This document shows, piece by piece, positions 2,701 to 61,000 of a stretch of DNA of 64,000 bases. The notes under the pieces are model-generated. The model saw only the letters and a list, made by a program, of their open reading frames with translations, made no database searches and had not been told where the DNA came from. The DNA is from Pocillopora damicornis (Eukaryota): contig NW_020843823.1 of assembly GCF_003704095.1 (NCBI RefSeq), positions 186,001 through 250,000 of the forward strand, read 5' to 3'. Position 1 is the first letter of the stretch. Each line of letters begins with the position of its first letter. The position numbers and the translations under genes are program-made.

Positions 2701-2784
2701 AACATTTACGTTTAGCTAAAAACCATAAAATGAGCGTCTGATCTCAACGGATAGAGTATCGCTCCCAAATGTTTTATTTTTAAG

Positions 2785-12387: not shown

Positions 12388-15300
12388 GACATTTTAAACA
12401 TCTGTTGAATCTAAGATAATGGTACGAGGAACATGCCGCACAGAGGGTACCCTGGTAGCCAGTGTTACACTTTGAGTTTATTCCGCCCTTACATGAGTCT
12501 GGATAAGGGCACTTCAGAGGCTTTGGCAACTGTCCTTCAAAAATGGAGAAGGTTTTATTGTATTTAGCTGTGGTAATATGAATGTTGTGGACGAAACTTA
12601 AGTAAAATTCCATTTTTTCGGAGCTGTTCCATTTCCAAAAGTAATTTGGTGCTAATATTGCCGTATCATCCTCACAGTTCATTCCATGATATGGACACGA
12701 TTTGCAGGGACCAAAACGATTCAAGCGGTAGAATTTATGAAGGCATCGACATGCACGGTAACCAGCGGTTTCATTAGTTCTAGTACCTGTTTACAAACAC
12801 AGAAATGTTATGTAAACACATTGCGACCAAAATTTCCCAACATGAAAGCCCTTTACTCTTCTGAGAGATCTTTCAGGGACCAGTTGTTCAATGGACGGAT
12901 ACGATAACACTATCAAACGGGTAAATCGCTATCCAGTGGATAAGTGTTCACAAAACGTACTGCGCTATCCACCAAATTGAGATTTATCCAGTCAAGAGCG
13001 CTATCCAGCCTTTGAACAACCAGGGCCAGATGGCAACCACCAGTGCTCTCCACAACATTGTAAACCTATGGTTGCATGGGAAGTGATACACATCAGAGAC
13101 CACACCAAAATTTACCGACAGCACCTGGTCAACAATTTACGGTTAGCGACGGGTAGTCGTTTTTCCTCACCGCGCTCTGAAAATTAGCAATACAGGTGTC
13201 GAAATAAATGGCTTTTCCTAGCTTGGCTCCACGATCAGTAATGACTCTTAATCGCGAGAAAATGATTAATAATTAGTTTGTGTGTAAAATCATAATGAAA
13301 AACAAACACATTTTGCAAAGCATAAAATCATGGTAATCGGACAATAAGATGGTGAGTAAAACCACGCAAGAGTTTGTTATTGAACCTGATCCTTACCGTA
13401 TGGGCATGCGCGACAGTCATTAGGACTTTTTCCAGGATGCTGTTCCTCAGGAACATAGGTACCCGTGCTGCAAATCTTGCATCCATATTGACCCATCTCA
13501 TCTTGATAAAAGCCTCCTGAAACGAAAGCATTTTCAGTTAATACGTGTTACTTTTATTTTGAGATCAATGAATAGGCAAAAAAGAAAAAAATGTGCGCAA
13601 GCCCTGTTCGCAAGCCTTATGCGCTGGTTTGCGGAAGGAATGAAGGAGCGGAGGAACGAAGGAGTGAATTTTGGTTCGGCGCAATTCTAACAAAATCTTA
13701 AAGGGACTGATCCTTGATTTTTTTATTAGGAGCATCTGAATGCATGGAACAACGCGTCTAGTTTTTCGTGAAAAACGGTAATGAAAAAAAAAACAATAGC
13801 ATATTATAATCAAAAGACTTAAGTAATTACCTGCGGGACACTTTAAACAATTGGTGTGTGAGTCAACTGTCGGATAATAGGTACCCACCGAGCAAAAACT
13901 GCAGTTATAGCACCTGCGTAAAGGACCGTGCCTGTATTTTCGGCACATAAAACCTATGAGTCCCCTCATTACAAACCCAATTTCATCATTGCAGAGGACT
14001 ACGTGGAAGGTAGCTGACGGAGCACATTCGCTAAAGAAAGAAACAAAAGACAGATTGACACCGTTATCACCTCTTTCAACAACCAATAAAGCGAAATAGG
14101 GTTTATCTTTAGCGCATGAAGAAGACAGTGATAATCGTGTGAATGATTAAAGCGCCAAAGCCTCTGCAAGCCACCTAACCCTTGTTTAGCGACAAGTTTG
14201 CATTTCTCAGAAGGCAGACGCTCTAAGTAGGAGTTCGACTATTCCACTAGATTAGCTTTTACTATTTGTATGACACCAACTCACTCGTTACTAACATTTT
14301 ATGATAATTATTTATTTATCATTTACTTTGTATTAATTTCTAATTTGAATTTGTTGAAAACTGAGCTGGGTGAATAAATTAAGTCAAGTGTAAGTGTATA
14401 AAGCTAACTCATTGCTTACCCATTTGTTTCTAAGCTTTTCATGACTACTCACATTAAAGGAAAAGTAGACTTCCCTCGTGGAATCTTTCGAAGGTTTTTA
14501 CATGAAACAGCCCTGCAAGATGAAGCACAATCTTTATCATACGGTTTTTTTTTCAGTGATGGTAATGATATGGCCTGTAGCAACTAGAATTTGAATTTCT
14601 GTTAATTGTCAAGTAACTGCAAAATTATTTTATCATATAAACTGCGGTGTTATACAAGGATTTCCGGCCTTAAGAAAAGCCGTAACAACACACGTGAAAA
14701 AATATCGTATTTTTTCACGTGTGTTGATATAGCCAATCAGCTACTGACACGTCACTCGCCTTTAGCGCCACTCAATCAGGTTGATGAATGAACGGCAAAG
14801 CCTTCACCCATTTTTCCATCTTAAGAGTTAGCGCCAACGTACTCTACGATAGTTATTCGGAGATTGTCGATTCATTTATTTTCATTCATTAATGAAGTCG
14901 GCTTTTCTTCTCAGTAAAGGGCTATTATACAATAAACAAAGTTATTTATACGATAAACAAAGTAATACATGGTTGCTTGTAGACATGTAATTTCTCTTCT
15001 CGTGTTCAACTCGAAGAGAGATTCCATATCTACGTGCGCCCAGGTACTATTCTCTATTTTTATTATTTCCTCTTTCAATTGAACTACTGTTGTATGTTAT
15101 GCTGTATGTTATGTCTCTATTCAATTAAGTTCGCGTTTTTGCGTGAGGTTGTGTAAGAATTACGTAACGCCAGTAGCGTTGTATTTCTCGTCAGTATAAA
15201 GTTAGATAATTTTCATCGCTAGTTGATTTCAACTAAGTCAGTCGTTTCGTTACTTTTTGCTAGCGCCGTGTTACTTTTGTTTAAGAGTTTTACTATCGGA

Positions 15301-37960: not shown

Positions 37961-40900
37961 ATGGCGACCCGTTTCCCAGAAGACGGATCTGAAAGCAAAA
38001 GTGTAAGGAATGAAGACACAAAAGGTCAATTTAAAGAAAATATATCAAAACCCAGCTTAACTGGTGAGTTTTTGGTGATTATTGGGAGAAATTTGTGCAG
38101 ATTCTTGCATCAGCGCGGCTTCTCCAGTGAATTCACATGGAAAATGCCTACCTCAGCGTATCTGAGAGTGTGTGAAATCTTAAGAATTTTGACACCCATC
38201 TGTTTTGGATAGCTTTCCTGTGGCGAAAGTAACAAAATGGAAATTTGCAGTACTGCCTAATTAGCAGTGTTAATCATGTTCTTTGATAAGCTCCGATCGA
38301 TTATTCGATTGAATCTTCGTTTCACCGCTATTGCGGAAGTAAAGCGAACCGAATTAGACTTATTTGAGAGTCTACTCACTTACACTAACACTGATTTCAG
38401 GTTTGTTTTGAATTCTTCCTTGAGAAAAGTCGTTTTGTTGTGTCGGATTGATACCCAAGGATCTCCGAAAATAGTGAAACCTGATTAAGGAGTGTGGCAA
38501 TTATCAACGTGCGGTCCATAAAGTTGAATAAAATCGTTCTATTTACATCTTATACGCTTTACTAAAACTGTAACTGCCGTCACAAGTATGACAGAGCCAT
38601 GTGTAATTTACTCACTCGCCTTTTCAATTGCATTTCCAGGATCGCTGGTACAAGATCCAAATAAATTGAACGTTACCCTTGCAACAGATGCAGAGGGTTG
38701 GGACAAGTCTGTCAATGAACAATTTCTTCTTGAACTTGCTCAGAATCCTCAAGTAAGAGTCACTGGGTTTGTACCTAAGCACACCCCAAAGCAGAAAGAC
38801 CATGCCAGGGACTTAAACATTGAGCTGGTTGATGCCAAAGAAATCACAGGTTTTCCAGCAGTTGAGCTTCTAGCTTATCCACCTGACGATCTTGACATTG
38901 ATATTCTCATCATACACTCCTATGGGCGTGACCTGGGGCGACAAGCACAGATCATAAAAGACAAGAAAAAGTGCCAGTGGGTTAATGTTGTCCATACTGT
39001 CAGTGAAGATCTAGAGAAATTTTCTGTTAAGAAATCTGCAGACTCAGCTGCAAATGATCAATTAACTGAACACGACCTCCAGACAAGATTGTGCGAGAAA
39101 TCTGACCTTATCATTGCAATTGGCCCAAAAGTTACAGAAGCTTACAGAGCTGCTCTGAAGTACAGTGGTAAAGACCAAAGTGTGATTTGTTTGACTCCTG
39201 GAATTATTGAAGAATTCCTTGGTGTGCGCGGGGAAATTAAAGGCTCAGGTGAAATTTTCCGTGTGCTGCTCAGTGCCTCATCCAAGTATTTCTTGGTCAA
39301 AGGATGTGATATTGCCACTAAAGCTATCAATCTGTTAAAAGATTCATCCTACCATCTTATATTTGTCAGACAGCCAAAGGATAATGAAGATCAGCTGAAG
39401 AAAGCCTTTCTTGATTTAGGAATCAATCAGCATCAACTCACCTTTAGAAGTTCTGGGAGCAAAGACTTCTGGCCAAGGTTGCTTTGTGAAGTGGATCTGG
39501 TCATCAAACCATCAAGAACAGAGGGTTTTGGCATAAGTGGTCTGCGTGCCATTTCAGCAGACGTCCCTGTTCTTGTGAGCGGAAACTGTGGTCTTGGCAT
39601 GGTGTTGAAGTCATTACCCTCTGGTGCACAGCATGTAATTGATTCCGAAGACCCTCAGGACTGGGCTGATGCGATAAAGAAAGTCAGGGCAAAGGCAGTG
39701 CAAGTTCGAAAAGCAGAATCAGAACAACTAAGGAATGATTACATGCAGCAATTCAACTGGAAGATGCAATGCAATGAAATTGTCAAGAAAATGTTTTCAA
39801 TGAATCCACACAAATCTGGTGAGTTTGTTTATTGTAATTTTGATTTAATTAGGAACAGTTTAAGTTTAATTTGTGTTTGTCCTGTTGTTCACCCTCTACA
39901 GCCTAATATAATAATAATAATAATAATAATAATATAATAATAATATCAGTGTTTAAGTTCTCCATTATGTTGTTTATATGTTTCTTACTGACAGTATTTA
40001 CATTAAAACAAGGAGAATTTGCTTAATAATCAAGAGCTTCTTGACCTTGTAATTATTTTCTTTATTCTTGTCACCTTCATATTTGACTCAGGGGTGACAC
40101 TGTTGGGAGAAATAAGATTCTTATCACTCTCAGGGGCTTAGGGTTAATACATCCTAAGACAAGTGTCATTAGTTAGTCTGAAGGCAGTGTCACAATTGTG
40201 AACTAAGAGTTGCTGGTGATGGTAACAGCAAATGTCCTTAGATGTCCTTAGGGCACACTGAGGTGCATTTGCATTTGGTTTTCTTGTAGGGAATTCAAGA
40301 AAAATTTGAATTACCAAGAAAAATATTTTTGAAATGCATGTAAGCTGAAGTTTGGCCTTCTGTTCAGGCACATGTTGGATGAGTTAGCTCTTGATTTTTT
40401 TTTTTTTTGACAATAGATAATAGTCATCTTTGATTTTCAAAGCAGAGTAAAGTTGCAGGGAGAAAGGAAACTAATGACTTTTCAGTGAATAATTGCAACC
40501 TTAGAAAGCTGACTCTTGTTTACTCATTAGACTCCTTCATTGTAAATTGCTGACTGATTCTGAACAGAAGTTCTTAAATTCAAATCTTTTTGTTAATATA
40601 GCATAAATATAAATAGGCAAATTTATCACCTTTTTTATATTTCTTAGAATACAGAAAGAAAGCTGTTGAGTGGCAGTTTGATGTTGCTGATACCACAAGA
40701 GATCTGCAGTCACTGCAAGTGAATCGCGATGATGTGGATGGAGGTCCGTATTATCAGTATGAGACTGAGAAGATGAGTATTCAGGAGACAAGCCAGTTCC
40801 CTAGGACATACAAACGTGGAGACATATCACGTAGAAACATGGGAGTCAGTAATCTACCCCTTAAAGAATACAGAAAAGTTTGCATAATGCTCAACACCAA

Positions 40901-41135
40901 GCGAGATCTGAAATTTGATGACTTCAGGATGCTTGCTGAGAAAGTTGGATTCAACAGGGATGAGATACGGATGATTGAACAGGGTGAAAATCCTACTGAC
41001 AAGGTTCTGCAGACCTGGTCATCAAAGAGAGAGGCTACTGTTGGAAACTTAATTGACCTGTTGACAGGTGAGGACCTGGAGAGAATGGATGTGGCAAAGG
41101 TGCTTGAAGACTGGGTAAATGATACTTGTCATTAA
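37961..41135 (+). CDS. GT4 (GT-B) glycosyltransferase-like domain plus C-terminal MyD88-like Death domain, paralog A (~589 aa)
   Basis: Exons 37961-38063, 38640-39818, 40648-41135; all GT-AG, phase 1; 1770 nt open. GT4 motifs KGCDIA and DLVIKPSRTEGFG..., VPVLVS. Death domain VSNLPLKEYRKVCIMLN...DDFRMLAEKVGF..DEIRMIEQGENPTDKVLQTW..ATVGNLIDLL...RMDVAKVLEDW. Confidence 0.88.
39889..40146 (+). mobile_element. MITE-like short element (ttaaccct...agggttaa family) with an (AAT)n expansion
   Basis: Same family as 55067-55518, 62298-62480, 62812-63008 and 42590-42750 (aaggagaatttg.ttaa.aatcaagagcttc...ggagaaattaga...tcactct.agggg.taa.gggttaa). Confidence 0.6.
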
Positions 41136-43671
41136 ACATTTAGAGTACGGCTCCTCCCCAAGTCAGATTTGAATGTTCTTGATGTGGAAGAACAAGCAGA
41201 TCTAGTTTTTATCAGTAAAAGTTTTGTACAGTATGGCAAGAAATTTGTAGACTTGGAGAAGAATGTTCTAGTTTTTTTTGTTTCCATAGAACCTCTGTTT
41301 TAACTTTGGTCAAATGATAGTTTATGAACTTTAAGTCAACTTTATTTGTGATGATCTTTTCTCAGGTCTTGATCTTGATGTGTAAGATTGGTAGCTTGTA
41401 TCTAGCTCTTTTAAAAGTGCATGCCCTTTCAAGATTTAATTTCATGTAGTATTAAAACAGAGAATTTAGCCTAATTGACATTAGCTGGTAACATTAACCT
41501 AATTTTTCCTTTTGGTATGTTAAAAAAAATAGTATTTAGAAAGGGGTTGAAGCCAGTGTTGAAACTAATCAACATAATCATCTTTGGCTGATTCTTTTAT
41601 AGACAAGTAGTTGGTCAAGGTGACCTCTTTTGTCAACAACTGAGTACCTTTGTCTCGTATGTGGGAGAGAAATGGAAGGATGCTAGGATTTGCACCGTTT
41701 AAGGTCACTATGCTGTGTTCTTGGGTAGTATATTAACTCTCACAGGTCCTTGCTGCAGAAACAAGCTTAGTAGCTAAGTTCTGGTAGCTGTATGAGTCAG
41801 TCTTGTAAGCAGAATTTTCCTTTTGTCACTTTGCATACAACAGATGTGACAAAAAAATGAAACAATGCAAACAAATAACTTCTAGACAACATTTAAGTTT
41901 CAATTAGTATATGAAAGTAGTCTTGTCATAGATATCTATCATTTTTATAGTTAAATGGCTTGTATGTTCACTAATTCTTTAAAAAAGAATGTATTTGAAT
42001 ACATAGTCTAGAGTGTGTTAATGTTACACTTAACATATTTATACTTCTTTTATTTAGTTTTACACCAATTGTTAAGGTTATTTTATAAGTTAACTTTTTT
42101 TTAGGTGGTATGGTTAATAACAATGATGTGGAGCAAGTGTCAAACCTGATGAGTGTAAACATTAAAATTACTTAATGGGAGAATTGGTTTAGTAGAACGA
42201 GTGATTGAGTCTTCATGTATTTTTTTTTCATTTTTTTGCTTCCTTGCATGCTGCCTTAGCTTGATGAGTTGACCAGTTTCCTGCTGCATGTTGAAATAAT
42301 TATATTACATATGACCATCAACAACAATAAATTGCATATTAGGTCATGGGTTCAAATCCTGTACAGGCCTGAATTTTTTTTCAAGCCTTATTTCAACTAC
42401 TAGTTCAGTGGTGTTCTTAATTGCAAGGATCAATTCTATATTTGTATATTAGGCTATTTTAGTGTCTCAAAAGGAAATTTAAATCTGGACTCTCCTGGAT
42501 GAAGTGACATCCACATCAGTTTACCATTTTCTAAATTTGCCAGTATCACCATCAATTTTTTACAACCTAGCTAACATTAGTGTTCACTGATCTCTCTACT
42601 TTTCCTGTGGTGATGATAGGGAGAATATATGCCAGTCAGAAGCTTCTTAAATTGGTTATCATTTTCATAAATTTCATGACCTTTACATTTGATTCAAGTG
42701 TGAAACTGTGATAAGAAATAAGATTCCTGTTACTCTTATAACAAAGGTTAAGAAATAGGGTCCCTATGAAATAATGGTTGCTTTGCATTCTTATTACTTG
42801 ATAAGAGGTCAAAGTTTTACAATGACAAAAGATGCAAAAGCACTATGCCTATTGACACTGTTTTAGCATGATGACCCTTCTCAAACTAGCTGCAAATGGA
42901 TGTGTCTTGTTTTCTTTGTAAATTTTGTATCAAAACACATTTAGGAAAACCAAGAAAGGCTGAATTTAAAAATTTTGGCTGTTGTTACTTCCCTGTAAAT
43001 CAAAAGCTCACGAGAAAAGTAAAATGAAAATCTCAGTACAGGTTCTTTGAAATTATAGTGAACTTTAAGAAGAAGAGAGCCAGGTCTTGCAAAGTGGGAT
43101 GTAGATGCCAACCACTGTTATTAACCCCAACCAAAAACAGGCTAAAGTGTTGTTTGAAGTTACATTTATTTATTGATGACACCTTGAACTGATCAACTCT
43201 CTTGTCATTTGGAGTGAGTTCATATCCTAAGCTAAGCCAATACTTGATAACTTGCTGAGCAAGCTCGCTTGGTCAGAAAAGTAACTATGAACATTAACAA
43301 AAACTTCCAGAGAAACCTTTTTTCTTTGCTTTAAGCTTGGCAATGTACTGATATGTAGTGATCAAATGCATTATGCTATGCAAGTTGTTTTGAGCTAGAC
43401 CAACATGCAGCTATTAAGTTTTGTCTTCAATAATGAACAGTAAAAATGGTAATAATATTTTGAAAAAGCCCTATCATGGCTTTAGTTCACAACATAATTT
43501 CAGAATGTTAGACCTATGAGCTACATTGTCAGTCAACACAAAGATTTAAATTGTATGGTATCTATAATCAAATCGGGCAAAATACTGAGTCTCAAACTAC
43601 CTAACTTCCAGCAAACTCTACTCCCTTTTTCTAATATGTAGTGGTAAACTTTGAGTCTGAGGAGGATGTGA

Positions 43672-45953
43672 CTAAATCATGGTGAACATTTTTTCAACAA
43701 GGTTTTCACACTGATCTTTCCAGTTGAATTGCCCAGTGTACTCTTTTCTTAAAGACTCTGCCTCTGCATTGCGCCCTTTTGCATCCTTTGCTTTAACTTC
43801 TTTGATCTTGTCAGCCCAGACCTGGGGATCATTGGACTCCACAACATGGTTTGCTCCTGAGGGTAACTTCTTCAGAGCTACACCAAGGCCAATATTTCCG
43901 CTGACTAGGACAGGAAGGTCAGCAGAAATGGCTCGGACACCACTTATTCCAAAACCTTCTGTTCTGGATGGTTTTATGACAAGGTCTGCTTCACGGAGAA
44001 GATTGTTCCAATCCTCACTGCTTTTTGCAACTTTGACAGTGAGTTGGTCAGGATTAATGCCCTCCTGGAGCAAAGCTTGGGTCATCTCTGTTACATTCTC
44101 ACTAGGCTTCACAACAAACACAAGGTGGATGGATGGTGTACCAGTTAGTTTGATTGCTTTAGCAGCAATGTCACAGCCTTTGATCTTGAAATATTTGGAT
44201 GAACCACTGATCAACACACGGAACACTTCACTGTCATCTTGAGGGGGTCGTACACCAACAAGGTTGAGGAAAATTCCTGGTGTCAGGTCAATGACCTCTT
44301 TCTGTATTCCACCAAGTTGGAAAGCTGATCTGTAAGCTTCTGCCACTTTGGGTCCAATTGCAACCACGATATCAGCTTGTTTGCACAATGCAAGTTGCAA
44401 CTCATGCTCAGATGTATGCTCAGGTGCAAATGGCACAAGTTCCTCACTCACAGTGTGCAGAACATGAAGCCACTTGCAATTCTTGGTCTCCTTAATAATC
44501 TGTGCTTGTCGACCCACTTCATGTCCATAAGACTGCATCATCAAGACATCAATATTGAGACCATCAGGTGGATAAGCCAGCAAGTCTGCTGATGAATGCC
44601 CTGAGATATCTTTTGCATCAACAAGCTCAATGCCTAACTTCTGAGCTGCATCTCTCTGCTGCTGAGTGTTTTGAGGTACAAATCCAGTAATCTTCACTTT
44701 TGGGTTGCTGGCAAGCTCAAGAAGTAACTGGCCATTCACAGCTTTGTCCCAGCCCACATTACTAGCAACCAAGGTGACATTCAGTTTCTGTGCATCTCCT
44801 GAAAGTAAAATTTTAAACAGTTACTTTAAATTATTTAATAACTATAATAATATGTTTGGTTAGGTTAAAATATTGGTGACCATATTATGACTATAACTGT
44901 AATAAAGAGATTAATTCTGCATTCTTTACTCTTGAGCAGACATTTTGGGTGACTTATTTTGTCCAAAATTGAAAAAGGTAGGGTTTAGAAAGATAATTAT
45001 AAGGTGGCATTCATAATCCATAATTTATCTAATGAGAGTTCAGTAGCTCTTGTAAGACTTAATACCTCTTTTTCTAGAGGAAAGGTAGATGTTAATCTGT
45101 AACCTTAATTTTAAGTGTAGTGAATTGATTATAATCATTCATTTAAAATAATCCCACAATTCATGGTATAGATGTGATATTACTTTCTTGAATAGGATTC
45201 CTGATATGAACTACTTCCCCCCTTCAAGTCTTCATCCCGTCCTTCCCCTATTCTAGCTAAATAGGACAGTACACATTTACACTTTGGGAGAGGTCTGTCC
45301 GTTTAGTTTTACCATAAAATAATATTTTCCTGCCGCCATTGACACATAAAATAGAAAATCTCAGTTCTCTGGTAAAAGTTCACGAAAATCGTCTACATAT
45401 AAAGAGAATTCCCTTTTTTTCGCCCAGCAGTCAAGTCGAAAGACGTCTTGATCCACATGTCATGATGATCTCAAAATTTGAAATGAAAATTTATCAAATG
45501 TTTCCTACTCGCCTGTAGCATCTATTTACAGCGAGTTCAAGTATAAAATTTGTCATCAATGTGCATTTCGTACGACGAACCTTCAACATTTCCTCCACTT
45601 CCGTCTTCAAAGCAAAACTGCTGACGAATCATATTAGTGCGCACTTTCAGCTTAGCGCGCTTAGTGTATGTGCTTGTGATTTCCTCACACATAGCAGTGA
45701 AAATTTTAATTTATTGAGGATAAAAGCGGATGGTAGCAGTAACTTATCTCAATTATTAAGGGCACATATGGTTAAAAGTTGACCCATTTTGGAAAAATTT
45801 GACTAAGGCTGATTTTAGCACGCACGAGAACATAGAGAGAACTGTGTCTGATTGCACCTCGAATCTCGCTGAACACTGTAGTACATGAACTCAGATGATT
45901 AAAATGTGCTCTTCAAGAACGAAAAGATTAGTCTCACCTGTAACACCTGACAT
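43672..45953 (-). CDS. GT4 glycosyltransferase-like protein without a Death domain, paralog B (~380 aa)
   Basis: Exon 1 45953-45938 (ATGTCAGGTGTTACAG|gtgaga) plus exon 2 44798-43672 (tttcag|GA). MSGVTGDAQKLNVTLVAS...DLVIKPSRTEGFGISGVRAISADLPVLVS...FNWKDQCENLVEKMFTMI*. The stop lies where the paralogs have a splice donor. Confidence 0.88.
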
Positions 45954-46220
45954 TTTGAATCATGTGGTACTCAAGATCAAAAAGATGAGAATCGAGAGTT
46001 TTCGCGAGGGTTTTCGACTATACTCCGTTACTGGTACTGTCAAATGGTCTGACCGAGGGAGTACTGGAGACGGCTTGTTTCACTTCCTTAATTTCCGCGA
46101 AAGTGGGGGGTGTTTGGTGCGATGCCGAAGCGACTCCAGATGTCGAGACAAGAATTAGAAGCGAAGGAAACCATCCCAGCTACAGCGAATCAATGACCAT
46201 AAATGAATGTTACATAGCAA
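45954..46220. promoter_or_regulatory. Putative bidirectional promoter shared by paralogs B (-) and C (+)
   Basis: CpG-richer interval between the B start codon (45953) and a strong plus-strand donor (caa|gtaagt at 46221), which could splice to the acceptor ttccacag at 47918 upstream of the C ATG. Confidence 0.45.
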
Positions 46221-47939
46221 GTAAGTTCTACAAATTTAAATTCTCCCCGATTTGATTACCGGTAGGTTTCTAATGTAGCTAATCTGCAAAAGTTCAAAAC
46301 CGAAAGAGGAAAACGCAATGGATTCCCCATTAAGAAACGAAAATGAAAGAATCGGTTTTAGTCCTATTCATCTTTTGCTCGCGTATGAGGTGATTCCAGC
46401 TGTTAGGTTCTTAACTCCTATGCAGTTTTGTTTTCGATCAATATTTAGACAATGCGCATAGTGATTACTCGATCGCTTTCACGCCAGAAAATGTGTTATG
46501 ATTGTCTTGTATGAATTCTCCAAACGAATCTGTAACGCATGAGATTTAAGCATATTTTCTCTTTCAAAGTTGTACGTACATCCAGCGAATTTTTTTAAAT
46601 TCTTAGTTTCTCATGGTTTAAATATAGCTTTGCGAGGAAACGTTGACAAAACCATGAGTTTACTGATGCCATGCCTGGAGTAATTAGTGATGACATTCGA
46701 TCTGCATCTGGACGCGTCATCTAGTAATCGCAGCTGCCGAGTTGATTTCAAATCCTGAAAATTAAATATAGATTTTTGTTTTCATTCTGCCTCTTGTCAT
46801 GTATTAAATGTAGCACTTTCAACCGATCAAAGCCAATCAGGGATACAGTTGCTTGATCATGATAATATTCTTTATAATATTCTTTAATCAGGGCGAAGGG
46901 GTCAAGCTTCAAAATCTGTTTTTGGGAAAGACACTTTCCTCTTCAGTATCTCTATCTGCTAAGCGTGTCTGTGGGTGCCATAAAACTGTAATAGGAACCT
47001 GACAAAACTGATCTTGGGAGGTTTCCTTGCAGTGGACAAGCATCCCATTAGTGAAGGAGGGCAGGAAGGGCAAAGTAGCAACAGGGGTGGATCTAGGGAA
47101 GGGGTGTAGAGGATGTGCTCCCCCCTTGCCTGAGATGACCTGTGACTGTTTTATTGGTGTTGAAGTAAAACATGAGACAAAATTAAGGAATTCTTGTGAA
47201 ATACAGCATCCGTTAAGTATTATTTGTATTCTTGGCAGTTCACATTATGTTATTATGACAGACTGATAAATTTATTAAGTAAGAACATTTTAACATTGCA
47301 GTTAGTAAGCTGATATTTAAAATAAGTTAAAAAAAAATTTAACAAATGCATAGTCCTTTAAAACAACCATGCACAATAGTATTTGAATTATAGAATATAT
47401 GTCAATAAGTATCTGATTTACTTGTTTAGTAGACTTATTATATGCAAAACTAATACCTACTCTATGAAAATATAGCAACAGTGTTGTCACTTGTAACAAG
47501 TTAAACAAGAAGACCACCTTGTTGCATAATCAGCAATTCATTTGAGCTATCATCAATCCATTTCTGTCTTGTCACATTTTGTCACAATATAAATACTTGT
47601 CAATGAGTGTATATTGTCCCAACTGTAATATATGCAGAAATGCTACCAAATATATAAACTCGTGAGTTTAGTTCAATATAGGATTATTACTTTCATTTGT
47701 GTGTGTATGAATAAAGAACTTTTGCAGAACCAAGTAGTTAACACACCTTGTCATAAACCTTCTTCTTCCTTGCTTGCTTTTGAAATTTATTTCAGTCACC
47801 CATCAGTCATGTCATTCTTTAGTAAGAGCAAATACTCTTAGTTATACCTGACTCTAGATGACACAGTTGAGTTTGAATTTTCAAATAAAATTTAGTTTCT
47901 TTCCTCCTTTTTCCACAGTTGGCTTCTCAGCAGTAAAAT

Positions 47940-50900
47940 ATGGAGAAATGTAGATTAAACATAACCTTGGCCACTGGTGCAGTTGGATGGAACACATTGG
48001 TGAACAACCAGTTACTTATTGAACTTGCAAAAAATTCAAAAGTGAAAGTGACTGGACTTGTGCCAAGAAGCACCCAGGAACAGAAAGAACAGGCCAAGAA
48101 GTTAAATGTTGAACTTGTTGATGGCCAAGAACTGGATGGTTTTTCTTCAATGGAACTCCTGTCTTTCCCACCAGATGATCTTGAAATTGATGTTTTGTTC
48201 ATGCACTCATATGGGCTTCATGAGGGAAAACATGCACAGAACATAAGAACAGCTAAGAAATGTAAATGGTTTCACATCATCCATACCATTGGCGAAGAAC
48301 TTGCTAAATATATGGATAACAAATGTGAGCAGGAGTCAGAGCACCAGCTACAGCTTAAACTGAGTCGGAAAGCAGACTGTGTAATTGCAATTGGTCCCAA
48401 AGTAGCAGACACCTTCAGATCTGAACTGTGTCATTGTGGAAAGAGCAATGATGTCATTGATTTAACTCCAGGGATCATGAAGGAATTGGTAGGTGTGCGA
48501 GCATTCCAACAATGTGGAGAAATCTTCCGCATCTTGATCAGTGCAACATGGTTTGCAAAGTATTACAAAGTAAAGGGGCTGGATATTGCAGCCAAGGCCA
48601 TGACGTTCTTGAAAGAGGTATCATGCCATCTGATCTATATTGTCAACAAAGATGAAGATACCGAAGACCTCAAGAACCAACTCCTTCAGGAAGGGATTGA
48701 GCTGAACCAGCTTACTGTGCGACGTTTGCAAAGTTCTAACTTGGAAAATTGGAAGAGTCAGCTGTGTCAAGTCAATCTTATCATTATGCCAGCACGAACA
48801 GAGGGCTTCGGCACAACCAACCTCCGTGCTATTTCTGCTGACCTCCCAGTACTTGTCAGCCAGAATTGTGGTTTTGGAATGGCTCTGAAGAAATTGCCCT
48901 CTGGAGAAAAACATGTCATTAAATCAAATAAACCTGAAGTTTGGGCAGAGAGGATAAAAGAAGTCCTAGAAAAAAGGCCAGAAGATCTGATGTCAGAAGC
49001 GAAGAAGCTTCGCAAAGAGTATGAGGAAAAATACAACTGGGAGAAGCAATGTGAAGATCTTGTTGACAGAATGCTTACAATGTTTCCAAGCAAACAAGGT
49101 GTGTTTGATTTATCACAGATTCACAGAGTGCTTGTCCACGCTAAGAGAAGGTTCACTTTGAGAGCTAGCTCTAATGGTATAGCAAAATTTAATGTTGGTG
49201 AATTGTTGATTTACCTGAATTTACTCCCACTCCAGGTTTTTTTTTCTCTGAAGAGTTATAGTATCACAAATTTTTTTCTGCATTGTACAAGAGGTAATTT
49301 CAATGGCATCATATATCATTCAATAAAATACCTATGAATGTCTTGAGTTACAACTGTTGAGTGAGTCTCAACTATTACAAATTAAATACAAAATTTCAGC
49401 AAAAAGTTGTTCTTATTTTTTCTTATATTTTGAAAAAGGGAAACCAAAGCTCTGCTCTTGATACTTTTAACTCAAACTGCCTTTCACTAGCATTGTGTTT
49501 ACATCTTTTGTCCTTAATGTAGTCCCTTTATTGGGAGACGCAGTGGCCAGAGGTCTGTGTTCAAGATCAGGCAGGTCAATGTGTTGTGTTCTTGGGCAAG
49601 ACACTTTTAGCCTCTCTCCACCCAGGAGTATGAATGGGTACCACCTAATTTTCAGGGAAGCCTGAAGAAATGCAGGGGGGGGGGGNNNNNNNNNNNNNNN
49701 NNNNNNNNNNNNNNNNNNNNNNNNNNNNNNNNNNNNNNNNNNNNNNNNNGGGCCACTAGGGTTATGTACAGTCACTCTACCCTTACTTTTACTCTCTTTA
49801 TGTAACAAATAGAGAAGCCTTGACTGTGCTCTGTTCTGTTGTAAAGCAGGAAAGAAGCAGTTAGAGCATGAAAGAAGTGTAGGGAGGAACACAAGACATA
49901 GTTGAGTGTGTCTCTCCACTTCTTGAGTGCTCAGCTTGAGTGCTCAGCTCTGTGTTTTGTACTCTGGTAGTCTATAATGTGGCTTGGGTTTAATTTTCGA
50001 ACTTGGTGTCTATCAAATGTGGGTTCATTTTGTTATTGGTTTTTGTCCTTGCTCAAGAATTTTTCATAGGGAACTCTACTTTTGTTTTCCTCCCTCCACA
50101 CACAAAAAAAGATTAACACTCCAACTCCCAATTTAACATGGAAACAGTGAGCAAAGAAATACTTTGTGGTTTTTTTATTTGTGTATGTTTTGATATATAT
50201 TTTTCATTGTTTTTAGCAACTTGATTAAAAGAATGTCTTTTCTTTCTCTCTTCAGAAGATTTCAAACAATGTGTTGAGCACGGTGAAGAGTCTGACCAAG
50301 CAAGGGGAGGGGATCCAGAAGTCCAGCAATGTGAAACCGAGGTAATGGTATATGAGGAGAGAATGCATGAAAATGGTAACCTTGGAAGCGCAGAGCTGAG
50401 GCTTGCAGGAAAAAAGAAAATCAACCAAAGTGAGAGAAAAGCTAACAAGGAGATGGTTGATGTTCTCCAGAGCAGGACTCAGGAACTGAGCCTTGTAACA
50501 AGAGAGTCTGAAAGTAAGAGCATAGACTACAAGGAAAAGGTTGAAATTGTCCAGGAGAGGACTCAGGAGGTGGGCCATGCAGCAGCAAAGGAGGTCAAGA
50601 AAAAGGGAAGTGGATTTGATCAGACAGATGGTGCAGCAGCAACATTAGATGGTGTTAATGATAGTGAATCAAACAGGGATCAGACAGGACAGCCTGTCAA
50701 AGCTCAAGACATTCCTTATTCTATTTTGAGTAAAATCTGCCTGAAACTAAATGCAAAGGATGACTTGTCTTTTAGAGATTTTCGCCTGCTTGGAGAGAAA
50801 ATGGGATTTGATAAAGATTTGACAAAAGTTTTAGAACAGAAAAGTAATCCTACTTATGAACTTTTTCAATTGTGGCATCCAAATCCTAAATCAACTGTGG

Positions 50901-50998
50901 AAAATCTTTTAATGATACTCAAAGATGATGAAATGGGGAGATGGGATGTTGTAACCGTTCTGGAAGACTGGTTGGAAGAAAAAGGGATTAAGAATTAG
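47940..50998 (+). CDS. GT4-like domain plus long acidic/charged linker plus MyD88-like Death domain, paralog C (~633 aa)
   Basis: Coding exons 47940-49098 and 50256-50998 (phase 1); in-frame TAA just upstream of the ATG. NLIIMPARTEGFGTTNLRAISADLPVLVS. Death domain AQDIPYSILSKICLKLN...RDFRLLGEKMGF...NPTYELFQLW..STVENLLMIL...RWDVVTVLEDW. Confidence 0.88.
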
Positions 50999-52701
50999 TT
51001 AGAAATAATGGAGAGTGTATAATATTAGGGTGGTTTGGCAGGAGGAGACAAATGTTTTCAGTTTTAACTACAGTTGATACACTGCACTGATAGATGAGGT
51101 GCTGAAATATTTTCAGTGGCAGAACAAGCATGTGAAGGGTGTTTCCTGCAATTAAATTGTGAGATTTAATCAGCAAATGTAAAAATGTTACCTTAAAAAG
51201 TACAAAGGTAGGGAATATTATAGGAGTATAACTGTTGTAGTAGTGGAGGAGTTGAAAAAGACCGATAAACTGTTTTAAAAAACTTTTAGTTTTTGAATTT
51301 GGAATTTTAGTCTTTTTGCATTAGTTATCAATCTTAGGTTGACAATATTAGCACAAATAAAAGTTTTTGTGAATCACAAGTCACAGAAATTGACAAGCAC
51401 AACTGTGTAGCAATCATAGCCAAAGCTGTTTATTTTTCTAAATTAGATGGCTTTTTAGCTCAGTGTTTTCCACAGATTTTGAAGAAGTCTGCTGTGATGG
51501 TAAAGTAACCAGAGCTTCCAAATCAAGTGCAAATTCAAGCTACGCTCGAAATTGTCTTACAAAAAAAAAAGGGAATTGTTTTCTGTGGCTTTGTCAAACG
51601 AAAGTAGCGGGCACTTGAGACGTGAGTATCCGGCAAAAACACCGGCTGCCAGGGCTTCTGGAGAACACTGTAAGCATTTATATATAGACTAAGTAAGTAC
51701 TGTAAGAAAGTGGTTCATAAGCAGAGGGTATCCATGGAATGGCCTCTCACCTGGTACTAACTTAAAAATAAATATCTGTGATTGAAAGATTAAAATAATA
51801 ATAACTCAAAATAGATAGGTTATAATAATAATAACTCAAAATAGATATTTGACATTGAAACTGGGAGAAAAGAAATGTGATACCACTTAAAGTAGTGTCA
51901 CAAAGAGAAGAAGTCTTTGGTTTGAAGGTTTATTTTTTATGTTTAAGTGTAACTTTACTTATGTTTTATTTAAGAAAAGGTGATCTTTTGTGAAAATGTC
52001 ACATTTACAATAAGCTTTTTGTAAATAAAGTTTCACACATTGTATCTGTGAAGTTTTGGTTGTGGTTAACATATACTTCCAGTTTAAAAACACAATGAAA
52101 TTTTAATGAACAAACTCTTGGATCCTCAGTCAGTCTTCTTGGGTTATTTCCTTTGTTCCGGTTGTCCACCTTGATTAATTTGCGTTGGGTTTAATACAAC
52201 TCAAAAGAAACTGGTGCCATAAGCCACTAACCATCATCAAACCTTGGTTATGAATTACCACTAAGAAGGGGTGGGTAGGGAGTGCACACCTACATGCTAT
52301 AAAGGGCTTTGCTACGGAACTCGTGTCCGCATCTTATTCACAGTACATACCTTTTTCAGGGGCGCGAATGAGACAGCTGAAAATAGCTAGAAATACAATA
52401 TCAAAGAGGTTTTATCCCTAACAGAAATCAGAATCTCTCTTAAAATATGTTTTGAGGACACTATGTGTAGCGTTATATGAATGATTTTCACAAATTTCGG
52501 CAATTTCGCGGGTCACTAACTCGTTCGGACCCTAATTGCTACATGTGGGCCCACTCTTTTCAAGGGATTACTTTTTGTAGACCATAGTCCCCTCTACTAA
52601 CTATGTGTAGACGTAGGCAGACATCTATATAGACATCTATTAGATGAAGTCTTCGAGGAAATGATAAATGGATTATAACTTTGTACACGGGATCTCTCGA
52701 T

Positions 52702-55700
52702 ATGGCGAGTGGAAACTCAGGTAAGTTAGAGGCCTCTGTCATTCATCTAAATAGGGATGTCATTCTGTAATTAACACTCAAATGAGCTTTGAAAGTTACT
52801 AGCAGACGCCCAACTCCGTTAAAATGTTTAAATAGTTCACTTTAAGATGCGAAAGTTTACTATAGGTAGTGTATGGCAATATTACGATACCAAAAAATTA
52901 AACTCGATTTGGCTATCATATAAATTTTGAACCAACTCACAAACTGTATGACTTGGCAATTTGGTGACTGGATTCATTTGCATTGCGGAATTAAGTTTTA
53001 TTCTAATATATCCTCGGGACTTGAGATAGATATTAGGGGCATGTCAGTTGTTGAAACATTCGAGATATTATCTTGAAAGACTCTTTGTTCTGAGTAAACC
53101 GGAAATGCTTATAGTCAATTACGGCAATAACATAAGGTAAAATTTCCGCACAGCCCCATACTATTGTAAAACAATTCTGTTTTCCCAATGGCAATGTGTT
53201 GTTTTTGTCATTGTTTCCTCTATCCAAAAACTGAATGCATAATGTAGTATGGGGCTATGCGGAAATTTTACTCTTGAAGTTGCACATTACGAAACACAAC
53301 GTGAACATAATGCAATTACATGTAGACCCAAATAGCCATATCTATTTTCTTCCATCATGTATTTGTGAACTTATCACGATGGAGAGGTTAAAATAACTTG
53401 GTTTGAAATTTTAAAAATGTTGTCTAGGTACAAGTAATTTTAAATTATCTTAAACATTAAAATTTTAATTCCATTTGAAAGAAAGGTATTGGTTGGAGTA
53501 ATTATGGTACTGTAAGATCTCTGTGGTTGATTAAACAAATGCAATCACCTTTTTTGTGGGGGGTAAATATGTTTGTTGGGAGTGGGGTTTCAGTGATTTC
53601 TAAAAAGTTTTTTTAAATGAGATGAACTACAGGTTTTAAGATAATCTTAGTTTAGTTTACTTTCATATTATTTTTTGTCTAAATTGCAGTTTCAAAACTG
53701 AATGTTACTTTGGCATCAGATGTTGATGGCTGGAACAAAACTGTCAATGGACAGTTAGTAATTGAATTGGGAAGAAATGACAGGCTCTGTGTGACTGGTT
53801 TTGTGCCAAAGAACACACAACAACAGCGAGAACATGCCAGAAGTCTAAACATTCAACTTGTTGAATCTAAGGACCATGATGGATTTTCATCAGCAGAGCT
53901 ACTGTGTTTTCCTCCTGATAATCTTAATATTGATGTTCTTTTCATACATTCTCATGGAACTAATTTGGGTCGACAAGCTCAAGCCATAAAAGATTTGAAG
54001 AAATGCAAATGGGTTCAGGTTGTGCATTCGTTTCATGAAGAATGTCATACAGCTAGGTATGAAAATGAAAATGAACTGCAAAGGAAAATGTGTGAAAAGG
54101 CTGATGCTGTTATTGCAATTGGTTCAAAGACTGCAGAATCATGTAGACGAGCACTGCGTTATTCCTTAAAACAGGAAAATGTCATCAACCTCACACCAGG
54201 TGTTTGTGAAGACCTTATTGGTGTGCGCCGGGTTTATGAGGATTTGGCAACCTTCCATGTGCTAATAAGTGGATCTTTGAGTCATTTTAGCATCAAAGGA
54301 TGTGATGTTGCAGTGAAAGCAATCAAATTATTGAATACACCATCTTATCACCTGACTGTTGTTGTGAAGTCACATGATGAGACTGCTGGCATTACAAAGG
54401 CTTTGCTTAATGAGGGGATCAATTCACAACAACTGGATGTGTGTGTTGCTGGAAGCCGTGAAGAGTGGCGAAAATTGATGTGTAAAGTGGATCTTGCCAT
54501 TAAACCTTCAAGAAATGAAGGATTTGGAATGAGTGGTCTTCTTGCCATTTCTGCAGACTTACCTGTGCTGATCAGTGAACACTGTGGACTTGGCATGGTT
54601 CTAAAGACTGTGTTATTTGGAAATTCACACGTGGTGGACTCAGTCAAACCAGAGGTTTGGGCTGACAGGATACAGCAAGTCAGAGATAAAGACCCAGAAC
54701 TTCGCCGCGAAGAAGCAAAGCAACTGAGGGATGGTTACACACAGAAGTTCAACTGGAAGAATCAATGTGAGAAAGTAGTGGAGACTCTGTGTAAACTTGG
54801 CCAAAAGATTGGTATGCATGATTCAAATGTAACAGTAACAGTGACATTTGTTAATTATTAAGTTTTAAGGATTTACCAACAATATGGCATTAAAATCTCT
54901 CTAGTTTTCAGCCCTTTTGTGTCAAGTAAAAGCAAATTATCCTCGGCCACCAACTTTTCATTTTTTAATGGCTCTTTATGATTTCATAATATCTCAACAG
55001 TATCATGTACCATGATAAGTTCTTGATTGTTGTTATTGTGGTGGAGAGAAGACTTGCTCTTTTTTTTTAACCCTTTTCACCCCAACATCAGTATGCATAT
55101 TCTCCCTAACATCAGTATGCATATTCTCCCTAACATCAGTATGCATATTCTCCCTAACATCAGTATGTATATTCTCCCTAACATCAGTATGCATATTCTC
55201 CCTAACATCAGTATGCATATTCTCCCTAACATCAGTATGCATATTCTCCCTAACATCAGTATGCATATTCTCCCTAACATCAGTATGCATATTCTCCCTA
55301 ACATCAGTATGCATATTCTCCCTAACATCAGTATGCATATTCTCCCTACTCAGTTCTCTAAGATTCCTATATATGCTGACAAAGAGAATTTGTTTAATCA
55401 ATCAAGGGTTTCTTATGTTGGTGATCGTTTCTATTATCTCATATCCTGTGACATGATTAAGGAGTGATATTGTTAGGAGAGTTTAGATGCTAATCACCCT
55501 TAGTGGTTACAGGGTTAACTGGAATGAAAGGGTTAATTACATTACATTCATAGCCATTTTTCTGCCACAGAGCCTGGAAAGTCTTAGTAGTTTACCAGTT
55601 ATGAAATACTGTTCTTTTTTTATGTGATTGCTGTGTCTTCAGTCAAGATTGCTATATCAATAGTATTTAGATTTTGGAATTATTAAATATATTGGGAAAC

Positions 55701-56371
55701 AAAATATAACAAGCTGGTGTTTTGAGCCAACACCTAGCATTTTGATTTTTAAAATGTGGCTTCAGGCCCTAGAGGTTACTTGGACATAGAACATACATTT
55801 ACCTAATGTTTCAAACTACATGCTACATTGCACTCTGTTTACATGTTATTGTAGAATTTTTGTCATTTTATGTATTATTTCTCCTGTTACAGAGGGACCT
55901 ACAGAAAAGCAGGACCAAGAGGAGGCAGTAATGAAACTTACTAAAACAGTTGAAAAGACCAACTTATCTGATGAAAGCTCTACCAGAGAGGAAAAAGACA
56001 CTAAGATGAAACAGGATGTGGTAGATGCTGGAAGAAGCCTGGCAAATGAACGGCTGTCAATGAGTGTCAGAAACTTACCTCTACCAGTATATTCGAGAGT
56101 CTGTTTGTCACTGAATGTCCTGAGAGATGTGCGATGGGATGACTTTCGAATGCTGGGTGAGAAAGTTGGGCTCTCTAGAGATGAGATTGACTTTATACAA
56201 CAGCAGAGAAACCCCACTGATGAAATTCTGAAAACATGGTCATCAAATCCCCATGAGGCAACAGTGGCAAAATTGATTGAACTTTTGAAACACAAAGATT
56301 TTAGAAGAATGGATGTGGCACAAATACTTGAAGAATGGGTTTCTGAGATGAATGAGAAGTACAATAATTAA
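52702..56371 (+). CDS. GT4-like domain plus MyD88-like Death domain, paralog D (~539 aa)
   Basis: Exons 52702-52720 (ATGGCGAGTGGAAACTCAG|gtaagt), 53690-54811, 55893-56371; all phase 1; 1620 nt open. DLAIKPSRNEGFGMSGLLAISADLPVLIS. Death domain VRNLPLPVYSRVCLSLN...DDFRMLGEKVGLSRDEIDFIQQQRNPTDEILKTW..ATVAKLIELL..RMDVAQILEEW. Confidence 0.88.
53137..53271. repeat. 27-bp inverted repeat (MITE-like) in intron 1 of paralog D
   Basis: gtaaaatttccgcacagccccatacta (53137-53163) versus tagtatggggctatgcggaaattttac (53245-53271); 1 mismatch. Confidence 0.65.
55080..55348 (+). repeat. 24-bp tandem repeat (~11 copies) inside a MITE-like element (55067-55518)
   Basis: Unit ccctaacatcagtatgcatattct, near-perfect copies. 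Confidence 0.95.
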
Positions 56372-58037: not shown

Positions 58038-61000
58038 CTATTTTCTGTTTTTAAACATAGATGGTACTCCAACAGGTTGAAAGACTCGCAGTGGATCCCT
58101 TGGGCCTGGTATCATGTAAGGAATCAAGCCTGTCAAAAAATTGCACAAGTAGAGTTATATACACCATGACAGGGGCAAGTAGACTGCAATAGATGGAGCA
58201 CTTTGCAACTAACCAACTGCAAAGCGTAGTGCCCAACGGATTGATGTAGAAAGTTAGGATCAGTGGAAAGGTCTTAGAATTGTCTATACTGTATTCTATT
58301 CTCTCTTACATCACCACAACCTTTTGTGCTCCTGTGCACTCCTCCTTGAGTTCTCTAGGCCACATTCACAAAAAGGCAACAATACATCTTAAACTGATAA
58401 AATTCCACAAAAAAAATCCCAACAGCATACCTTTGTCTCGAGCTTCGATTATTGCCTTTGTTAAAAGTTTGTGCTGTTTTTGGCAAACACCTGTAACAAA
58501 AAGAGCAGAAAAAATTAATGCAATTGAAAACTCCCCCTCAATATTTTAAGGAAAACAATTACGGTAGGTAAATAAACAAATGATCCAAGCACAGCAAAAA
58601 AAAAAAAAAGCTGTATAACTGGGTTTTCCATAATTTTTCCCATGAGCAGCTGCCAATGATGTAATAGCCAGCTGTGCCATTGGGTGAAATCAAAACAAGA
58701 GAACTTGCTTGCAGGCTAAACAGACAACAGTCGGAGGTCTTATGGGCAGCAGTTGACTGCCACTAAGTGCCTTTTATTGAGACTCCTGGGTAGCAAGTGC
58801 TCACACTGACCAAGATGCGAATTAAAAGGTAGGCACATGATTAAATTACTCGAGTTGGTTATGATAGCCTCAAAGAAATGAAAAAGAGAAGGGTTACTAT
58901 GTGCAGTGCTATATTTGTCCTCACTATATAATAACTTCACTGATCCTTTTGTAGAAAGCACTATCACCTGTTTTGATTGTTTCAAGAATCTTTTCTGTGT
59001 GAGGGCAGATGAACTGCGACAATAAACCCACATCCTGAAAATCAAATTTAGTGCAATCTTTAAGCTGTTGAAGTTTCTGAAAACAACTTCTAATGTTGTG
59101 CATTTTCTATACTTCTACAAAATTTTTTTTCTTCACTTGCCACCAACCACTGTGCCAGGCTAATGTGTCAGTCAATTCCGAGCATCAACCTCTCCAGTTT
59201 TCCCACACATTTGAACTTTTATAGATTAGCTCATTCAAATTCCTGCCAGCCAGGAAAAATGCCTGTGACTTCCCTGGAGGGAGGAAATTGCAACAACCTG
59301 AAATTCATTGCAAGCTCAGCCATAATTCCACGTTAAGAAAAATCTAGGGTGACTCAATTGGCACAGTTTGTAGATCGACTACTGAATACATGGCACAACT
59401 TGAAATCTAACAAGTGCATGATTGCCAAAGACGGAGACTACTCCCCACAAAATATTGCATGACCTATTCCTAGGCACCAGCAAAGTGTGAGAGTATACAT
59501 CTTCCACTACCTTTGTTTCACTCAGTCAGAGAAGGAAAAAAGGATGACACACTTCAAGCATTACCATGCCTAACTTGTCCATGCACCATGGGGACAGTGG
59601 AGAACCATAACTGTTACATATTTATAACCAAAACCACTCATAAAATACCCTGACACTGGGCCAATTTGACAGGTCACATGACCAAAGATACAAAAAAGAC
59701 CCCAGCCACCAGCTGTATGTTATGATAATTTTACTGAATATGACAAAATTAACAAACCAGTTGGGTAAAATGGTATTGTTTCTACAAACACAAGTAGCTG
59801 TTAACAAGTTATTACTTTTTTTATTACTCACTGTATAAACCACTTCATAGTTTCTCTCTGCTTTAAGTTGACATATGGGACAGGGATTACTGCATACTTT
59901 GGTACCAGCCTGAAAAAGAAATAGGTTGTTGCATTCTACAAAATTCATGACTCACCACTGGTTGCTATTAGTGATGGCAACAAATATTTGGATATTCCTT
60001 TTAGGTATCTATAGAGTAATAATACTCAGCTAAAATGCTATTGATAATAATGAACTACTATTCACCAAAGCAGAGGTAGCTGGTAGTGGATATTTATTAA
60101 TGCCGGAAGTGGCAAGATAAATACCCACCACTAAACCACCTAAAATGAGGTAAATGGTTGTTTTATTACAGTAAAAAAAGTATCACTCCTACTGAAAAAT
60201 ATGAAAGTGTGCTTTCACACAGTGTAAACAACTTGGTCCATGAAAGCAACATCATTCATCCGTGATATTATGCTTATTTTCAACCTTGCAATACTTTTGA
60301 CTCAATAAAGAAATACAAATTACTATTCTAGTACCCAATGGGAAAACTTTGCAATTATTCCTCAGTGGCTGCCTGTATATATTTAGACTTAACAACAGCC
60401 AAAGGTTCATAGTGCAGTCCAATCACATTACACAAATCCCAATTTTGTTGCAAGATTAATATAACAGAGGTCAGATTGACCTGGTGGTAAATACAAAACA
60501 CCTTTTTTAAAACTGTTTCAGAAGGCTGGGCGAAGCTGTACACTGGCTTTTCAAAGCAACAGGATATTTCTAGAGCAAGCTCTCATGTGTAACTAACCAA
60601 AATTTAAATAAAAACTTACAAAGCAGTTCCGTCGCGTTTTCTGTCAAAGAAACAAAACACAAAAGGCAAATTTAGCAATTAGACTAGGAGTGCAGCAACA
60701 GATCAAAACATAAAGCTTTCCAAGGGAAAAAATTCCACAAAATTAAGTCCCACAATTGGCAGGTAAGCTTGTTGTACTGACTCAGCAACAAAATCACACA
60801 AAATGCATCACCCTCTTGTCTGTAGACTTCACAAATACTTAATTAAAGGATGACTTTATAATTAGAGAAAGAACTTTACCTGAGGTGGAAACTGGCCTTT
60901 AAAATTTCTTTGGAAATTTGTCCAGATTGGTTTTCCTCCTTGAGCAAAAATGAAATGAGTAAAACAAAAACTTATCAAACAATTAATATATTGTATATTT

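Follow-up and report, generated by a model that had tools for sequence, protein, structure and literature searches.

The GT4-conflict family (PF20706) and its expansion in Acropora have been described as predicted glycosylating effectors (Kaur et al. 2021, PMC8195603), and the Figure 6 source data of that work hold GT4+DEATH proteins of 524-675 amino acids (aa) from Acropora digitifera, an architecture listed 51 times counting isoforms. The same GT4 family is found in an immune setting in the coral GT4-NACHT-LRR receptors of the NLR type, and coral genome papers mention, in their passages on these domains, only the GT4 expansion (PMC12314368, PMC8260672, PMC10236652). Here we analyze 64,000 nt of Pocillopora damicornis (NW_020843823.1, positions 186,001-250,000; G000:C458:186001-250000 in our own scheme), hereafter the window, which carries four neighbouring GT4-conflict genes, A to D. 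The four are members of the family and share its GT4+death architecture, but in their clade three residues kept by most members are missing (the second Gly, the beta8 Arg and the second Glu), while the centre of the sugar pocket is retained. Ordinary nucleotide-sugar transfer has probably been lost in this clade.

The family and the GT4+death architecture are thus known already (PMC8195603); the rebuilding of the active site is apparently new, in that our literature searches, with most subscription journals outside their coverage, found no published account of it. The GT4 section of Kaur et al. 2021 makes no mention of inactive members (its figures and one supplementary file lay outside this search; PMC8195603), and the alignment file of that work gave no match for the clade motifs, nor for a canonical control motif, so that this negative carries no information. 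No activity assay for any GT4-conflict family member came up in the literature surveyed.

Results

Four genes with the same altered active site

The GT4 domain of each gene lies within one exon and matches the PF20706 profile (cut-off 26 bits; profile positions 15-385; scores in Table 1), with 47-57% identity between pairs. GT..AG joints were recovered for all four genes in contigs from four RNA runs of three studies, which show transcription and splicing, not levels. The spliced frames are open over 589 aa (A), 380 aa (B), 633 aa (C) and 539 aa (D). Genes A, C and D carry a C-terminal death domain; gene B is a GT4 domain alone, placed head to head with C and tail to tail with A, and this A-B layout recurs on one metagenome contig (L051). 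All models end after the death domain or the GT4 domain, with no NACHT domain following.

Substitutions were counted in the 82 tree members of the clade described below (set 1) and in 65 more domains, not reduced for redundancy (set 2), using gene A numbering. The second Gly of the Gly-Gly loop has become Trp55 in all four genes and in 75/76 and 61/61 domains of the two sets (136/137). At the Arg of beta8 stands Ser248 or Thr, with Arg in 0/82 and 0/64 domains (0/146), and Arg is likewise absent from the position directly before the Lys (0/147 clade domains). The second Glu of the E-x7-E motif is replaced by Arg337, Leu, Tyr or Ser (Glu in 0/82 and 0/64; 0/146), and the Gly-Ala after beta9 is also lost. 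A further change, missed by the first-pass annotation of this DNA, lies on the acceptor side: the helix Lys/Arg is kept in 1/82 and 1/63 domains, with Glu178 in 75/82 and 45/63. This position aligns with MshA Arg154, which we take to have a role in holding the acceptor phosphate.

Three residues are kept as consistently as these are lost. His153 is found in 82/82 and 63/65 domains (145/147), Lys255 in 82/82 and 62/65 (the other three have Arg), and the first Glu, Glu329, in 81/82 and 62/64 (143/146), with the G-F-G after it. They align with MshA His133, Lys236 and Glu316, and are three of only 11 polar columns conserved at 98% or more among 180 columns. Such retention is not automatic, because all three are gone from two further coral lineages that have decayed (of 7 and 5 domains). 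Judging from these alignments, the pocket is rebuilt, not erased.

The first-pass annotation had given the losses only. Its letters were right: the motif reads EGFGISGLR in A, EGFGISGVR in B, EGFGTTNLR in C and EGFGMSGLL in D (positions in Table 1), AD(V/L)P follows in all four, and the four beta8-to-KG stretches read as it quoted them, with the Arg gone. Its absent Gly-Gly loop is half correct: in the alignment of GWxxxVN with GGLSTIN the first Gly is retained and Trp replaces only its neighbour. Its loss of catalytic residues was overstated: His, Lys and the first Glu (H153, K255 and E329 in A), by mutagenesis the most critical for chemistry, remain in all four genes. It had also given the altered residues a donor-binding role, for which we found no source in the case of the Gly of 'A.G.P'.

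Comparison with solved enzymes

The AlphaFold model of the gene A domain (predicted local distance difference test, pLDDT, 92.8; predicted template modelling score 0.91) has the two-Rossmann GT-B fold. Its whole-length fold matches are MshA (Foldseek E 2e-15), BshA and sucrose-phosphate synthase (Tll1590: VIA Z 30.3, root-mean-square deviation, rmsd, 3.4, 355 aligned), and those of a canonical paralogue model are alike; the canonical family member folds nearest to sucrose-phosphate synthase (Z 33.8, rmsd 3.2, 352 aligned). A search of the ESM Atlas returned GT4 clusters only. The N-terminal domain of Tps2, presumably inactive, is also among the fold matches of the gene A model. In this model helix 1 is broken and less confident around the Trp (block mean 78), while in the paralogue the helix starts directly after Gly-Gly; as the paralogue model is without its first strand, this is a hint only. 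The clade shares the GT-B fold, His, Lys and first Glu with the retaining GT4 enzymes MshA, PimB', BshA and Tll1590. It differs, at 12-18% identity, in having Ser/Thr, Arg/Leu and Glu at the positions of MshA R231, E324 and R154, and Trp for the second Gly. Among the features of active GT4 enzymes, the first Glu and the His are present, and the Gly-Gly loop, the Arg+Lys basic pair and the second Glu are not.

Published mutants indicate what such changes cost, with PimB' positions transferred to the coral proteins by motif position, not by direct alignment. PimB' G20W, at the second Gly, retains 3.2% activity with unchanged binding of GDP-mannose (GDP-Man), which its authors ascribe to blocked domain closure, and R206S retains 5.6%, again with GDP-Man binding kept; H118S, K211Q and E290Q leave 0.7%, 3.5% and 4.6%; and Glu298 binds ribose, while ionic bonds to Lys211 fix Glu290 in place (PMC2988379). 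In other enzymes, second-Glu mutants are inactive in TviE (PMC8760489) and almost inactive in GTcp (PMC8231724), ALG2 needs its G-rich loop (bioRxiv 10.1101/2025.10.15.682550), and in a GumH model the His and the first Glu contact the sugar while the second Glu contacts ribose (PMC13104830). With several changes fixed in the clade, each of them harmful by itself, its domains have probably lost ordinary transfer.

A single clade of coral domains

From 299 sequences, 242 domains that spanned 75% or more of a profile were extracted; 191 remained after reduction at 93% identity, and a tree was built from these with the five diagnostic columns masked. Together with 78 relatives, the four genes make up a single stony-coral clade (82 non-redundant domains; FastTree support 1.0) on a long stem (0.61 with FastTree, range 0.54-0.61), nested among animal members of the GT4-conflict family. 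In a 50-sequence subset analyzed with IQ-TREE, the Shimodaira-Hasegawa-like approximate likelihood-ratio test (SH-aLRT) gave 100 for the clade and 98.8-100 for the groups around A, B, C and D and a fifth, basal group. Where a name is attached, as it is for a minority of the sequences, the members belong to Pocillopora, Orbicella, Oculina, Desmophyllum, Acropora and Montipora. Because the four genes and their relatives form one supported clade, we reject four independent losses; the four paralogues offered earlier as evidence are one inherited event, not four witnesses, and the active-site change appears to have occurred once, before these corals split.

A role specific to symbiosis is weakened by the presence of clade members in Desmophyllum pertusum, a coral without algal symbionts. 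A protein search for longer fusions of the clade (840-2395 aa) gave nine matches, the sole clade member among them a tandem GT4; this is weak evidence, the 652-839 aa range being covered by only one search.

Paralogues in the same genome

The genome holds 68 GT4-conflict matches (70 with the Pfam profile), among them about 40 full-length, mostly canonical paralogues. Among 26 other paralogues tabulated, the second Glu is kept in 23, the beta8 Arg in 19 and Gly-Gly in 15 of the 22 covered, and none has the Trp. Neither these 26 nor 29 frames taken at a further 20 loci included another clade member (the comparison left aside 18 short matches out of the 68). More widely, the full canonical set is present in 17/18 bacterial-type domains and 40/75 other animal-type domains, and all three markers are lost in 7/75 of the latter. 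As most same-genome paralogues and bacterial-type domains keep the canonical residues, the altered motif set is not a matter of chance. Active GT4 enzymes do not show this combination.

The first-pass annotation had proposed a comparison with NLR-fused GT4 domains. These are mostly canonical and fall outside the clade (Arg, Lys and both Glu kept in 5/5 tabulated NACHT-fused relatives), and genes A-D differ from the coral GT4-NACHT-LRR receptors in having no NACHT or LRR. Three paralogues have a NACHT domain 3-9 kb downstream on the same strand, a position from which fusion may be supposed: L007 is canonical, L015 has Cys for the Arg, and L006 is without Gly-Gly and Arg. None of the 90 NACHT matches lies on the contig of the window (C458).

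GT4 domains have decayed elsewhere in the coral expansion. A separate lineage of seven domains (L006, L013, L014, L018, L029, P0123 and P0160) has lost Gly-Gly and the Arg, keeps His, Lys and the first Glu, and mostly keeps the second Glu. Two more have fully eroded sites with His, Lys and the first Glu lost too: one of seven domains (P0139, P0172, P0178, P0185, P0193, P0194 and P0201) and one of five (P0181, P0191, P0204, P0215 and P0218). By their motifs, decay is common in the expansion, even beside NACHT domains, and pseudo-GT4 domains arose several times; the clade of A-D is distinct from these lineages in being old and stable and in keeping the centre of the pocket. Canonical domains (paralogues L005-L038; bacterial-type, e.g. 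P0260) have His, Thr, Lys/Arg and Glu at the positions of MshA His133, Thr134, Arg154 and Glu158, and there are hints in sequence and model that active GT4-conflict members may glycosylate a phosphorylated acceptor.

Selection

The ratio of nonsynonymous to synonymous substitution (dN/dS) was 0.13-0.22 (NG86) or 0.12-0.24 (YN00) for 13 pairs of a window gene and a relative from metagenome contigs, values that are rough at a synonymous divergence (dS) of 0.9-2.0. Canonical control pairs gave 0.11-0.22 (11 computable of 16), and pairs among the relatives reached 0.63. By these ratios the four genes are under purifying selection, and the earlier suggestion of selection for a non-canonical role agrees with the intact, spliced frames and their dN/dS. 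As a whole, the first-pass interpretation is partly supported.

Death domains

PF00531 exceeds its Pfam cut-off in A, C and D, with none in B. The closest solved match of the gene A death domain is that of MyD88 (E 1.8e-8); those of gene C are UNC5 and MyD88, and those of gene D Pelle and MyD88. The spliced coral models differ from these three proteins in having a C-terminal death domain and no TIR domain, kinase or membrane segment (neither TIR nor kinase was found in the scanned exons of the four genes). Because identity to the MyD88, Pelle and UNC5 death domains is low, signalling partners are not inferable. Relatives of these death domains at 42-46% identity lie at G000:C3883:932501-932776 and 921359-921595 and at C1915:191228-191488, with no clade GT4 nearby; they are possible partners or exon sources, going by their similarity.

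Gene models and neighbouring features

Table 1. Exons and diagnostic sites of genes A-D (positions in the window).
Feature	Positions	Strand	Evidence
Gene A coding exon 1, ATG 37961	37961-38063	+	Joint to 38640 in 3/4 RNA runs; open spliced frame
Gene A exon 2, whole GT4-conflict domain	38640-39818	+	PF20706 170 bits; AlphaFold pLDDT 92.8, GT-B fold
Gene A exon 2 sites	GW 38696-38701; HT 38993; K-to-E site 39068; beta8-KG 39269-39304; E-x7-R 39521-39547	+	
Gene A exon 3, linker and death domain (about 40836-41132), stop	40648-41135	+	Joint in 4/4 RNA runs, in one of them at an acceptor three bases further on; PF00531 48.5 bits
Gene B exon 2, GT4-conflict domain, stop directly after domain; E-x7-R 43933-43959	43672-44798	-	PF20706 177 bits
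Gene B coding exon 1, ATG 45953	45938-45953	-	Joint in 2/4 RNA runs; start agrees with P0001
Gene C non-coding exon 1	46112-46220	+	Joint 46220-47919 in 4/4 RNA runs; in-frame stops before ATG 47940
Gene C exon 2, GT4-conflict domain, ATG 47940; E-x7-R 48801-48827	47919-49098	+	PF20706 178 bits
Gene C exon 3, long charged linker and death domain	50256-50998	+	RNA joint; PF00531 31.6 bits, cut-off 22.6
Gene D coding exon 1	52702-52720	+	RNA extends back to 52537; joint in 3/4 RNA runs; frame open
Gene D exon 2, GT4-conflict domain; E-x7-L 54517-54543	53690-54811	+	PF20706 174 bits
Gene D exon 3, linker and death domain	55893-56371	+	PF00531 44.9 bits; RNA contigs in 3/3 runs join 54811 to 55893

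The end point of gene B is matched by its 380-aa relatives P0001-P0003. Genes B and C start about 160 bases apart on opposite strands (45938-46220), likely from a shared promoter, and the non-coding exon 1 of gene C contains upstream ATGs; in one RNA run this exon is joined straight to 50256, skipping the GT4 exon (weak, the short side being 25 letters). Tandem acceptors three bases apart precede the death-domain exons of A (40648/40651) and C (50256/50259), and both of those in A are used, in different RNA runs. The last intron of gene D holds a 24-base tandem repeat of 11.4 copies (55076-55348).

Elsewhere in the window, cysteine-rich exons with ephrin-receptor-like, DUF7630 and NCD3G matches, together with fragments of endonuclease of the long interspersed nuclear element type, lie at 2729-3586 (+), 12212-14146 (-) and 6982-8969 (-). 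Exons at about 58060-58490 (-) resemble by eye what we take to be mitochondrial ribosomal protein S18, a housekeeping gene that would bound the cluster. A scan for tRNA genes found none.

Discussion

Our leading reading, which we hold tentatively, is that these domains are non-transferring GT-B clamps that still bind a ligand and that, in the three genes wired to a death domain, act as a predicted intracellular sugar-ligand sensor. We favour a clamp because the residues that survive fall at the centre, where the sugar is held, and those that have gone belong to the subsites of the nucleoside and of both phosphates. By analogy with solved GT4 enzymes, His153, Lys255, Glu329 and the E-G-F-G loop would form the centre of the sugar-holding cleft, and the lost residues would once have bordered the subsites for the nucleoside, the pyrophosphate and the acceptor phosphate. 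Trp55 would impede the closure of the domains on which catalysis depends, and could stack on a sugar. The ligand would then contain a sugar, probably without a nucleoside part, and its binding would shift or cluster the proteins, so that the MyD88/Pelle-like death domains could seed the assembly of a signalling complex; gene B, which ends without a death domain, might compete for the ligand or act as a co-receptor.

Several observations weigh against this reading. The replacement of the second Glu varies between subgroups (Arg, Leu, Tyr or Ser), which argues against one shared ligand contact, and a new Lys in the beta8 loop, five residues before the conserved Lys, is found in 69/82 domains, including A, B and C, and might stand in for the Arg. 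The register that places Trp on Gly rests on an alignment with a deletion of 3-4 residues upstream. The second-Glu mutant E333A of WsaF is only weakened, and its authors assign this Glu to recognition, not catalysis (PMC3898925). The retention of Lys and the first Glu may be purely structural, given the ionic bond in PimB'. Gene B has no death domain, nor was one found on the available proteins of the basal subgroup (many of them single-exon calls, unable to show one). Finally, the missing beta8 Arg, which the first-pass annotation read as a sign of inactivity, proves little alone and was rejected as a marker: Pseudomonas aeruginosa WaaG is a working enzyme without it, and in 83 ordinary bacterial GT4 frames the pattern finds a beta8 Arg in 21, an Arg adjoining the Lys in 32 and neither in 30 (the 80 bacterial loci were picked by a pattern with both Glu and carry no information on the second).

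The alternative that survives best, which we regard as possible but on the unlikely side, is a pseudo-enzyme without a small ligand, whose contacts the death domain reports: it could bind proteins as a scaffold, regulate the active GT4 paralogues, or serve as a decoy that draws microbial inhibitors away from them. All the evidence for lost transfer fits it equally, the Lys-Glu pair has its structural bond in PimB' (PMC2988379), some 40 full-length and mostly canonical paralogues share the genome, and gene B, which faces C head to head, consists of the GT4 domain alone. There is also a precedent in GtfB and Asp1, inactive GT-B proteins of bacteria that keep the fold and serve in binding and assembly of complexes (bioRxiv 10.1101/219105). 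In these, however, neither of the two basic residues nor the essential Glu remains and the cleft is acidic, whereas the clade keeps Lys and the first Glu, has a death domain attached and shows no acidic cleft, the crude charge sum over 20 cleft columns being +0.7, as in bacterial-type domains (+0.7). The near-invariance of His, Lys and the first Glu, decayed in two other degenerate coral lineages, also speaks for a retained pocket over a bare scaffold.

We find it rather unlikely that the clade is an enzyme with changed chemistry, whether a slow or activated transferase reading the nucleotide differently, one using a non-nucleotide donor, or a hydrolase. Such an enzyme would account for the retention of the very residues most critical in PimB' (PMC2988379) and for dN/dS equal to that of canonical paralogues (0.11-0.22); the beta8 Arg can move or vanish in real GT4s, and the new Lys with Arg337 could bind phosphates. 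Gene D, however, has neither, four or more separately harmful changes would have to cancel out, and the second Glu is kept in six of six aligned solved GT-B enzymes. Both phosphate-binding basic positions are gone, and these a phosphorylase would presumably need.

A broader scheme, to which we give little credence, extends the sensor reading to a writer-reader immune pathway: intact GT4s on NLRs or other sensors would make or mark a glycoside, the disarmed clade would read the product in its preserved pocket and fire its MyD88-like death domain, and B would be a death-less buffer. Such a sugar second-messenger pair would be analogous to nucleotide-messenger systems. Neutral decay of dying copies, which the fast turnover of the family, the fragments and stops among the 68 genome matches and the other degenerate lineages might suggest, is refuted by open spliced frames, dN/dS near 0.2 and four orthologue groups (SH-aLRT 98.8-100) with members in six named coral genera.

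In corals, GT4 belongs with the immune-linked domains that have expanded most, and what it does is not shown in the literature surveyed. With this locus the family falls into two parts: one is mostly canonical and turns over fast, the other is small and stable and consists of four genes with a rebuilt pocket, three of them with a death domain. Databases label these proteins 'D-inositol 3-phosphate glycosyltransferase' or the like, probably wrongly. The clade domains are soluble and encoded in single exons, and the canonical paralogues are their natural control. If the sensor reading is true, these genes would represent a new type of intracellular receptor in animals.

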